Positions 17,982 to 20,600 of a stretch of DNA of 64,000 bases are shown piece after piece. Every line of letters begins with the position of its first letter. Within the stretch, counting starts at the first letter, position 1. Under the pieces are notes generated by a model. The model was not told the DNA's origin. It did not search any database and saw nothing but the letters and a program-made list of their open reading frames with translations. The position numbers were made by a program, and so were the translations under genes. Source of the stretch: Candidatus Doudnabacteria bacterium (GTDB lineage: Bacteria; Patescibacteriota; Doudnabacteria; UBA920; O2-02-FULL-48-8); the NCBI GenBank assembly GCA_016186915.1, contig JACPKU010000006.1:249619-313618 (forward strand). Reading direction: 5' to 3'.

Positions 17982-18084
17982 ATCAGTTATTATACCATTT
18001 TTCAAATAGATAACAAAACTTTTTGGCCCCAATCTAAATAGAATGCTATTATAAATCATCTAGGTCTAGCCACAAGGAGGAAAG

Positions 18085-18369
18085 ATGACTATTTGGGACA
18101 ATGCTACACCCGAACAGATTCTCGACCGAGTCAAGGCAATCGTGGCACCACATGGCTTAAACGCCGAATTTCTCGAAGGGATCCTGTCCGTTGGCGTTCA
18201 AGGGGACGATCGTACCTACACTCCCGTCGTGGTCCTGAACGGGCCGCATCCGGGCTGGGAAATCCTGGAGAGGCTTTCATCACAAATCTCCAACGAAACG
18301 CCCGTGAACCGAGTCACGTTCGAGGTTGCCACTCGGCCCACGACGCTCTCAAACCGGCGAGCGCGATAG
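18085..18369 (+). CDS. Small protein resembling the isolated C-terminal domain of GMP synthase
   Basis: SVGVQGD.RTY and LERLSSQI.NE..VNRVT.EV resemble the GuaA C-terminus; SD AAGGAGG; hairpin CCCGTCGA/TCGACGGG plus T-tract downstream. Confidence 0.75.
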   Translation: MTIWDNATPEQILDRVKAIVAPHGLNAEFLEGILSVGVQGDDRTYTPVVVLNGPHPGWEILERLSSQISNETPVNRVTFEVATRPTTLSNRRAR

Positions 18370-18472
18370 AGACTGAGTAATTGCGCAGGCAGAACTGCCC
18401 CGTCGACACTCGCTATCGACGGGATTTTTTATATTAACAAATTACTACAATACAAAATAAATTCACGCAAAC

Positions 18473-18549
18473 AAAAAAACCAGCCCTGACCTAACGTCGG
18501 GGCTGATTTTTTACGCGTTACATTTCTTGTACAAGATTTAGGCTTAACC
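18473..18549 (-). ncRNA. Putative ~78-nt small RNA (unit 3 of the ncRNA island)
   Basis: TTGACG-17-TATGAT promoter (18584-18556); terminator CAGCCCCGAC/GTCAGGGCTG plus U7; no ORF inside the transcript. Confidence 0.5.
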
Positions 18550-18617
18550 TTAACTATCATAAAATTGCTAAATCTTCACGTCAATAAATTTGTATTTCCT
18601 AAGATTTAGAAGGATTG

Positions 18618-18648
18618 TGTGCATATTCTCTGGAAAACTGCTGGATAA
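18618..18648. promoter_or_regulatory. Three degenerate DnaA-box-like 9-mers at 11-bp period
   Basis: TGTGCATAT, TCTGGAAAA, GCTGGATAA compared with consensus TGTGNATAA. Confidence 0.4.
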
Positions 18649-18695
18649 ATTGTACATTACCAAAATTTTAAGATTTGATTTCTAACTTTTGCATT

Positions 18696-18935
18696 AAAAA
18701 AATCACTAAAAAGTGATTTTTTTATAGACCGGTGTGCTGCTGATTTTGTTCTACCACTCTCTTACGAACCTAGCAGAACCCAGGGACCGGGTCCAAGAGG
18801 TTGCCCTTACTTGTTTTACACCTAAGCCGTTTCTTGCTTAAGCGAACCCTTGATCAAAACCTGCATCTCCTGATCCTCCGAACAGCCTTGCAGCTGCCCG
18901 CTCCGCCTAAGTTGCCTCAAACGGAGACCAATGGT
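18696..18935 (-). ncRNA. Putative ~240-nt multi-stem ncRNA (unit 2)
   Basis: TTGACA-17-TAAAAT promoter (18970-18942); GCAA-capped stems with G-U pairs on the minus strand; terminator 18696-18723. Confidence 0.7.
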
Positions 18936-19013
18936 GAATGTATTTTAGAAATTATTAAAATCAGTGTCAATAAATTTTAAAAACCCAGTTTTTATTAAAC
19001 TTTTGATAAATCC

Positions 19014-19045
19014 TGTGCATAACCTGTGCTTAACCTTGGGGATTA
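19014..19045. promoter_or_regulatory. DnaA-box-like array (TGTGCATAA, TGTGCTTAA, TGGGGATTA)
   Basis: One perfect TGTGNATAA match plus two degenerate boxes at 11-12 bp period. Confidence 0.5.
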
Positions 19046-19062
19046 ATTGTGAGTTTCTTACT

Positions 19063-19542
19063 AAAAAAGAGGCTCGCAAGCAAGGCTTACAAGCCGAAGA
19101 ACGAGGAGGGGAGCAGATCAACCATCCAACCGGTAGCCCTTGTTAAGGCGGCCAGATGGTCAAATCAGTCCCCTCCACCCCGCAGCGCTGACAGCGCTGT
19201 GTTTGCAGCGTGTCTCGTCCGGGCCTTGGGCCTCGGGCAGAGCCAGCCGCTGGGAACTTGTTGTTTCCTCCGAAAAATTGTAGCGGACAGGGAGTTTGGA
19301 TGGTTGAGGCCGGGCCAGCGGAATCAACCAGCCTCCCTCCCCATCCTGTCGGCGCCGAGCGTGTCAACTGGCGCCGAGCTTGTACCGAGGGGATGCGCGC
19401 GCGTAGGGCCAGTAGCAGCCCTTTAGCGTGGCCTTTGTTGCGCACTCACCCCCTCGGACCGCGCTTGTCCAGAAAGGCCCCAGCCCCTCGGACTTGCGCG
19501 ATCTTGAGAAACCCAAACCAAAAAAACTTACCTGTCTTTGGT
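19063..19542 (-). ncRNA. Putative ~480-nt GC-rich, highly structured ncRNA (unit 1)
   Basis: TTGACA-18-TATAAT promoter (19577-19548); consecutive long hairpins with minus-strand G-U pairs; terminator 19063-19095; overlapping ORFs do not look like proteins. Confidence 0.75.
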
Positions 19543-19583
19543 AAGTTATTATATATTTCAAATTACCAAACTGTCAATAGATT

Positions 19584-20600
19584 TTATTTTGTTGCCAAAA
19601 TACTTTTTTTATAGCTGTCCAAATTGTCCAACGCCACCCCTGTGCCGGCAGCCACGCATAAAATAGCGTTTTCAGCCACGTAAGCTGGAACTCCGGTAGT
19701 TTGGCCAATTAACTTGTCGATATTTCGCAAGAGCGCGGTGCCGCCTGTCAAAACCATGCCCTTATCAATTATATCCGCGGCCAGCTCAGGCGGAGTTTCT
19801 TGCAGGACGGTTCGGACTGCCTGGATGATTTCCCGCAGTTCTTCCTGAATCGCTTCCACGATTTCATTGGTGGAAATTTTAATCGTTTTGGGAAGCCCCT
19901 GTATCAAGTCCCTGCCTCGAATTTCAAGCTTGGTCTCTTTCTCCACTGGTATGGCCGAGCCGATCTTAATTTTAATATCTTCCGCAGTCCGGTCTCCCAC
20001 AGCCAAGCCGTGCTTGCGGCGGATATATTCTGCGATGGCCTGATCAATCTTGTTGCCCGCCACCCTCACAGAAGTCTGGGTCACAATCCCGCCAAGTGAA
20101 AGCACTGCCACGTCCGTGGTGCCGCCGCCAATGTCTATGATCATGTTGCCAGAAGGATTCGCGATGTCTATCCCAGCGCCGATAGCGGCGGCCACGGTTT
20201 CTTTGATTATGTAAGCGGCTTTGGCCCCGGCCGCGTGCGCCGCGTCAATCACCGCTCTTCTTTCAGTGGAAGTGATGCCGCCGGGTACGGAGATCATAAC
20301 TTCAGGGCGAAAAAATCGGACATTGCCCGTGGCCTTGTTAATAAAATACCGAAGCATAGCTTCTGTCACCCGGTAATCTGCAATCACCCCGTCCTTCATA
20401 GGTCTGTGCGCCACGATTGTGTCAGGAGTGCGGCCCAACATATCCTTGGCTTCCTGTCCCACGGCCAAAATCTTATTGTCAACTACAGAAATCGCCACCA
20501 CTGTGGGCTCATTAATAATAATGCCCTGCTTGGGCACGAATACTAAGGTGTTGGCAGTTCCTAAATCTATTCCAATTTGCCGTAAAAACAATCGAGCCAT
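19584..20600 (-). CDS. mreB: Second MreB/Mbl-family actin homolog
   Basis: GIDLGTANT, DIGGGTTD, LTGGTALL. Confidence 0.95.
   Translation of the reverse strand: MARLFLRQIGIDLGTANTLVFVPKQGIIINEPTVVAISVVDNKILAVGQEAKDMLGRTPDTIVAHRPMKDGVIADYRVTEAMLRYFINKATGNVRFFRPEVMISVPGGITSTERRAVIDAAHAAGAKAAYIIKETVAAAIGAGIDIANPSGNMIIDIGGGTTDVAVLSLGGIVTQTSVRVAGNKIDQAIAEYIRRKHGLAVGDRTAEDIKIKIGSAIPVEKETKLEIRGRDLIQGLPKTIKISTNEIVEAIQEELREIIQAVRTVLQETPPELAADIIDKGMVLTGGTALLRNIDKLIGQTTGVPAYVAENAILCVAAGTGVALDNLDSYKKSILATK

Follow-up and report, generated by a model that had tools for sequence, protein, structure and literature searches.

The DNA between mreB and a holB-like gene in a Candidatus Doudnabacteria genome holds what is likely, from its sequence, a real and self-contained transcription unit that is probably non-coding, absent from catalogues and poorly conserved. 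This unit, which we call unit A, is predicted to give a 480-nt, 60% GC non-coding RNA (19063..19542, minus strand) within the window, meaning the whole 64,000-nt stretch of DNA that was analysed. The window comes from contig C4 of a 0.73-Mb, 97%-complete genome (G000). The genomes of CPR bacteria are reduced, and little has been described of their non-coding RNAs. If our reading of this locus is true, about 1 kb of a 0.73-Mb genome comprises up to three uncatalogued RNA units, one slot exchanges RNA and protein cargo among relatives, and RNA genes turn over like accessory protein cassettes, with the claims on unit A limited by thin conservation.

Unit A lies on the minus strand between mreB (20600-19584) and the holB-like gene (18059-17130). 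The mreB gene (19584..20600, minus strand), which encodes a 338-aa MreB/Mbl protein (PF06723, E 1e-136), is upstream of unit A and ends a murB-murA-mreB run in which murA and murB were identified by eye. Three minus-strand promoters follow downstream of mreB, one each for unit A (19577, 12/12 consensus match) and two further units, B (18970, 11/12) and C (18584, 10/12). The unit A promoter (19548..19577) is of the sigma-70 type, TTGACA-18-TATAAT, with the predicted start ~6 nt after the -10 box. At the other end, an intrinsic terminator (19063..19095) combines an 11-bp hairpin (19095-19071; -17.4 kcal/mol) with a U tract. Because a consensus promoter and a terminator hairpin enclose no credible open reading frame, unit A is likely an accessory non-coding RNA gene, and we regard its transcription as quite probable.

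The initial annotation had described a stand-alone, hairpin-rich and probably non-coding unit whose promoter is nested in a terminator-like hairpin on the mreB side, and this picture was supported. The predicted start (~19542) indeed falls in the 5' arm of a hairpin (19547-19525) followed by U7, the sole terminator-like site from the mreB stop to unit A. This element (19518..19547, minus strand) is weak, with 8 bp and -7.9 kcal/mol, and is likely the mreB terminator. Folding predicted that a transcript from 19542 retains a 3-bp remnant of the hairpin with -1.2 kcal/mol, and by standard intrinsic-termination rules such a remnant suffices for read-through. The ACCAAAGA/UUUUUGGU stem to which read-through had been ascribed does form in the prediction (p 0.53, -4.7), but it is not needed, since a start at 19542 leaves only the 3-bp remnant. 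In the folded read-through mreB RNA a -5.2 hairpin rivals the -7.9 terminator, so mreB termination may be leaky. In 3 of 7 comparable units of the family (G013, G007, G004) there is likewise an overlap between the promoter or start and a hairpin with U-run, and the nesting looks like compact packing and not a special switch.

All of the complementary segments that had been singled out in unit A were present at 19542-19063 on the minus strand, and the hairpin-rich fold held up, with a minimum free energy of -233.9 kcal/mol (z -6.22) and 0/100 shuffles as stable. Without its terminator, the body was more stable for its GC than 96/96 GC-rich 401-nt windows of the genome, by a narrow margin (residual -26.3 vs -24.5 for the next best); GC-rich coding cassettes of the same genome fold almost as well, and one promoter-led coding segment reached z -6.3. 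Since folding alone barely sets the strand (sense/antisense z -6.2/-4.5; -6.2/-6.8 with 25 shuffles; -6.2/-4.4 with 100 shuffles), the strand of unit A rests on promoter and terminator. G-U pairs stood in excess over A-C by 23:7, but by 48:29 in shuffles.

Read 5' to 3' on the minus strand, the fold begins with the long hairpin H1 (19457..19503; p 0.80-1.0), H2 (19385..19457), which has a branched apex and a 14-nt stretch matching the unit of one relative, G021, at 13/14 positions, and H3 (19349..19377), which carries a paired GGCGCC in each arm. H4 (19285..19346) follows, and then a U-rich open linker with GGAGGAA and UUCCCAGC (19249..19284), two less stable hairpins that include the CAGCGCUG repeat hairpin (19183..19250; p 0.69-0.93), and the last long hairpin, H7 (19105..19176; p 0.72-0.98). 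As had been proposed, H1, H2, H3, the CAGCGCU hairpin (19199-19183), H7 and the terminator were predicted, at pair probabilities of 0.74-1.0. For H4, the proposed register (GGAUGG/CCAUCC with GAGGCUGG/CCGGCCUC) reached -25.1 and gave way to one at -34.8, with the basal helix GGAUGGGGAG/CUCCCUGUCC (p 0.99).

We surveyed the mreB-holB slot of relatives by synteny. An mreB match was found in 23 of 24 family genomes, two of them at a contig edge, leaving 21 readable slots. Twelve of these were empty before unit B or C, two held a protein cassette, and seven held a structured non-coding unit, 188-472 nt long and led by a promoter (G005, G014, G006, G013, G007, G004 and G021), the G006 unit being without a clear terminator and the G021 unit being preceded by an inserted gene. 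Body z-scores of these family units ranged from -5.1 to -10.8, and the sense strand clearly folded better in five of the seven (G014, G007, G004, G006, G021). Occupancy was patchy within genera (a unit in 1/3 of g14 and 1/2 of g11), which could reflect horizontal transfer or, equally, repeated loss. Elsewhere in the order, 20 of the 106 mreB loci outside the family were inspected and showed neither unit C nor a comparable slot unit.

Sequence searches returned little. A blastn search with unit A found no homolog in 60 relatives, 400 Patescibacteria genomes, phages or plasmids, and searches of phage, plasmid and viral collections gave no copy of it either. For the G004 and G014 units, 61 and 25 genomes, respectively, yielded no homolog. 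Among the MreB-anchored metagenome matches listed, which come from about 1/64 of the collection, MreB identity was at most 69% and no slot unit matched at E<0.04. A hexamer present in at least 5 of 8 units is at chance level, arising in 126/300 shuffles. Of 28 unit-versus-unit comparisons, 2 reached p<0.02.

The relation with the G021 unit is the best of these. The two units were similar at p 0.0015 (2000 shuffles), or about 0.04 after 28 tests, and at p 0.018 and 0.047 with two other scoring schemes; with the G021 unit as query, unit A tied for 2nd-4th of 4842 genome windows. The common part consists of H4 and the U-rich linker with GGAGGAA and UUCCCAGC, the linker being best conserved. Covariation among homologs had been put forward as a check, and in a G000/G021 alignment made by sequence alone it came out in part: H4 base pairs were kept in 18/20 cells with 4 compensatory pairs, and slid controls paired at 65% or less, but this involves two sequences only and 27/500 shuffles reach it. 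On this basis homology between unit A and the G021 unit is likely, if unproven. When 25 family genomes and 40 order genomes were searched with a core model of the two sequences, no third member came up, and the best candidate with model R2 (G009, E 0.18) was rejected as, by eye, protein-coding sequence. Homology with the G004 unit was likewise rejected (whole-unit p 0.43, 0.022 and 0.18); a motif shared with G004 had 29 viral matches that look like chance or coding sequence, and its confinement to its 2 source genomes among 146 is circular. We put the chance that unit A is a functional accessory non-coding RNA cassette with fast turnover at about even, and lean slightly towards selection acting on the RNA itself.

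The absence of coding capacity, which the initial annotation had supposed, was supported by several searches. The 100-aa sense frame had no protein homolog (0/15 candidates at E<=1), none of the 5 ORFs overlapping unit A rose above the Pfam cut-off, and sense ATG frames do not exceed 12 aa. The linker nonetheless holds a Shine-Dalgarno (SD)-like GGAGG (19271-19267) with no start codon, 7 nt downstream of which an AAG opens 38 codons. Unit A might thus be a decayed or non-canonically started mini-gene, made up of promoter, structured leader, SD, a 38-codon frame with AAG for AUG, and terminator, resembling the GC-rich orphan mini-genes of the same genome, its folding being that of a structured mRNA. 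We consider this unlikely, though it survives best among the alternatives. Protein cassettes do fill the slot in 2 of 21 relatives, and a segment of similar size and layout, C4:192619-192154, had the top structure-aware score against unit A (z 3.3). Such alignments of units are too noisy, however, with decoys at z 3.1-4.3, and the 70-aa ORF of that segment is without homolog, as is the 38-codon frame. When all unit-A peptides were compared with the 7 other slot units by tblastn, matches were short and inconsistent in frame. The SD region persists in G021 with a 4-nt indel, and no canonical start follows its GGAGG; a shared ORF is therefore disfavoured.

The C4:192619-192154 segment (L197; minus strand) is a 465-nt unit of 60% GC running from promoter to terminator, with a structured leader of 186 nt, GGAGG, an ATG and a 70-aa orphan ORF, without homolog at the DNA or protein level.

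Known RNA families gave no better account. No Rfam 15 family reached gathering level in the window; the region 18000-19700 gave sub-threshold chance matches only, and the family loci gave 0 matches in 20 loci and 1 chance match in 7 loci. Membership of a large non-coding RNA class, for which a covariance-model search had been put forward initially, did not hold, with empty Rfam scans of the window and no match to the raiA model (RF03072) in the genome; a conserved large RNA of the OLE/raiA kind was rejected, since unit A has at most a single, remote homolog. RNase P RNA and tmRNA were rejected as identities, both being encoded elsewhere in the genome (C4:100789-101232, 97.5 bits and E 4e-31, just below the Rfam cut-off of 100; and C1:8587-8969). 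6S RNA is a single rod of ~190 nt with a central bubble; it was rejected because the unit A fold is a series of hairpins and RF00013 has no match in the genome. SRP RNA was rejected too: neither RF00169 nor RF01854 matched, and no Ffh (SRP_SPB domain) was found in this 97%-complete genome. A CsrB/RsmY-type sponge was discarded, with 10 GGA motifs (8.5 expected), 1 of them unpaired, and no CsrA found in the genome, as were omega-RNA, retron, DGR and group II intron RNAs, with neither PF07282 (TnpB) nor PF00078 (reverse transcriptase) found there.

The patchy slot admits a second alternative, that unit A is transcribed but unselected filler: a GC-rich insert, or REP/MITE-like or attC-like palindromes, in an insertion hot spot, specific to the lineage, which keeps a promoter and terminator and has no RNA function. 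The 12 empty slots, the variation within genera and the mostly unalignable units would all suit such an origin, as would the modest strand asymmetry in G000 and the GC hairpins in which its intergenic DNA is rich. No second copy of any unit-A hairpin was found in the genome, however; its stems, with their internal loops and numerous G-U pairs, are imperfect; terminal repeats or a target duplication were not visible by eye, and neither TnpB nor reverse transcriptase was found. A 12/12 promoter and a compensatory H4 would also be hard to keep without selection, and we hold filler to be a rather poor prospect. Elsewhere in the genome, C2:11754-12050 (plus strand) forms a promoter-led, very long rod-like hairpin with z about -14.5.

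A third alternative is a trans-acting base-pairing or protein-scaffold RNA that does not bind ribosomes, possibly a homodimer joined by the GGCC that the H4 loop exposes, or a precursor that RNase III would cut into shorter RNAs. Long helices such as those of unit A are typical RNase III substrates and would suit the latter. Dimerisation had first been ascribed to GGCGCC or CAGCGCUG, which our folding does not support, as GGCGCC is unpaired at 0.00 and CAGCGCUG at 0.13-0.17. The H4 apical loop CUGGCC, by comparison, is unpaired at 0.98 and exposes the 4-nt palindrome GGCC, and GGCC-like loop palindromes form intermolecular bridges in OLE and GOLLD (PMC12286853). A 4-nt palindrome in 1 of 10 loops is nevertheless near chance, six-mer palindromes are not in excess (10 vs 7.3 +/- 2.8 by chance), and the 12.5 kcal/mol gained on homodimer cofolding is a gain that any long hairpin allows. 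There was no extended antisense target either: the 77 complementary 12-mers (~41 expected) are concentrated in the U-rich 5' part, and the longest complementary match is a U-rich one of 18 nt. With neither GNRA nor UUCG loops among the 10 hairpin loops and no CsrA found in the genome, we think a pairing or scaffold role improbable.

Returning to unit A as a functional non-coding RNA cassette, a role in binding the 30S subunit is suggested by its self-contained, protein-less layout, the start-less SD, a precedent in B. subtilis and the RNase J encoded in the genome. In that precedent, an SD without start codon stabilises downstream RNA against RNase J1 (PMC5737220). Transcription would begin within the weak hairpin on the mreB side and continue past its truncated remnant, and the product would be a stable 480-nt chain of long helices. 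The open U-rich linker and start-less GGAGGAA would then bind the small ribosomal subunit with no translation start, and the 30S sitting there would shield the RNA from 5'-3' degradation by RNase J in a STAB-SD-like manner. The whole RNA, or its 3' half, would thereby build up and act as a stable decoy that binds ribosomes or proteins. We regard this 30S/STAB-SD step, whether as stabiliser or decoy, as doubtful.

The sequence features of a STAB-SD that were found are an SD without start codon and RNase J in the genome. In the predicted fold the U-rich stretch of the linker is unpaired at 0.8-1.0 and the SD is mostly paired (unpaired 0.1-0.4); UUCCCAGC, downstream of the SD-like GGAGGAA, can pair with the SD, and RNAalifold on G000/G021 added a helix in which the SD pairs with UUCCC. 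The 16S 3' end, which would carry the anti-SD of the host, was not found in the assembly. Start-less GGAGGA is common in the genome (17 of 44 sites outside long ORFs lack a start), and the G000/G021 SD pattern occurred in 1 of 401 genomes, namely G000 itself in a sample that did not include G021, and in 0 viral contigs. The G014 slot unit (L012) has a U-rich GGAGGA followed at 7 nt by an AUG-UGA start-stop minimal ORF, an arrangement that would fit a ribosome-binding role without protein.

Units B and C lie between unit A and the holB-like gene. Unit B (18695..18970, minus strand) has its own promoter (18970-18942), a structured RNA of ~215 nt and a terminator, and has no Rfam match. Across 11 aligned copies its mean identity was 75%, with compensatory change in 36 of 77 predicted pairs. 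With a sequence-only model and strict filters it was found in 13/25 family genomes and 0/121 other order genomes, and its pattern matched 14 GTDB records, 11 of which adjoin mreB, 9 of those 11 being Ca. Doudnabacteria; in viral contigs the pattern had 7 matches, all in coding sequence. Unit B is an uncatalogued RNA, better supported than unit A. It contains several GNRA loops and, near the 3' end, an invariant ACACC that could form a pseudoknot.

Unit C (18470..18584, minus strand), upstream of the holB-like gene, has a promoter (18584-18556), a GGTTAAGCC start and a terminator-like stem. Of 24 family loci examined, 19 have GGTTAAGCC where the start is predicted, and a conserved TCGAAAC...GCAGGATCGA motif lay inside the terminator-like stem in 11 of 19 unit C loci (for example L007, L011, L014, L021, L023, L026 and L028); the copy in G000 is shorter than in most relatives and misses this internal motif. 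By its layout unit C looks like a riboswitch or attenuator. In L009 and L015 an optional long hairpin module with complementary ends sits directly after GGTTAAGCCTA and is flanked by a short CCTA repeat, with a similar start in L012, L025 and L026; the module resembles a small element of mobile or modular kind. A GC-rich, stand-alone 94-aa gene (18085-18369, plus strand) with SD and terminator, matching GMP_synt_C at E 2e-7, stands between unit C and holB. Family-wide, pairs of DnaA-box-like words precede the B and C promoters by 45-60 bp (19033-19014 and ~18626 in the window, minus strand), which suggests a shared regulator. A replication origin at the locus was rejected, with 66 such words genome-wide, dnaA on C2 and no turn of GC skew here.

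Two metatranscriptome runs were matched, at shares of 0.07 and 0.06, the host not being shown to be present in them. Contigs from these data covered unit B of related organisms over 18730-18876 (6 differences) and 18740-18876 (10 differences), DNA in the libraries not being excluded. Unit A and the G021 unit had no coverage, and for unit A this gap is uninformative because the organism was not shown to be in these runs. In the literature, with subscription papers and motif-screen supplements outside the scope, nothing was found on this RNA or locus. Taken further, the mreB-holB RNA cluster of the family might serve as a system, based on RNA, for storing ribosomes or for dormancy in a 0.7-Mb episymbiont without detectable SRP or 6S RNA, in which fast-diverging 190-480-nt RNAs of the unit A slot would park 30S subunits beside a ribozyme-like 215-nt unit B and a riboswitch-like leader C; this reading is highly speculative.

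Among known systems, type I toxin-antitoxin loci combine a small hydrophobic ORF, a sequestered SD and a convergent antisense RNA. Their mRNAs are, like unit A, highly folded transcripts of 350-480 nt with a sequestered SD; this identity was rejected, as unit A lacks a small hydrophobic ORF after its SD, and a convergent antisense promoter is missing too. A moron-like cassette is a promoter-gene-terminator unit. Unit A shares with such cassettes a self-contained place at an operon junction and GC-rich, interchangeable cargo, having its own promoter and terminator, insertion at a junction and variability among relatives; it differs in its apparent RNA cargo, in residing on a bacterial chromosome, and in that searches gave no copy in phages. 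A strong, start-less SD-like sequence in a host with RNase J is what unit A shares with STAB-SD elements (cryIIIA; B. subtilis hbs, PMC5737220), but these protect downstream coding mRNA, whereas unit A has only ~200 nt of non-coding RNA after an SD predicted to be partly paired. The raiA motif, OLE, ROOL and GOLLD are likewise stand-alone RNAs of several hundred nt with many helices and no ORF; in hundreds to thousands of species these RNAs keep pseudoknots, helices that covary and a large number of invariant nucleotides (PMC10861870, PMC12286853). Unit A, by contrast, consists of simple hairpins in a row, matches no Rfam family and has a single, doubtful homolog, and of the RNAs at this locus it is unit B that fits this kind better.
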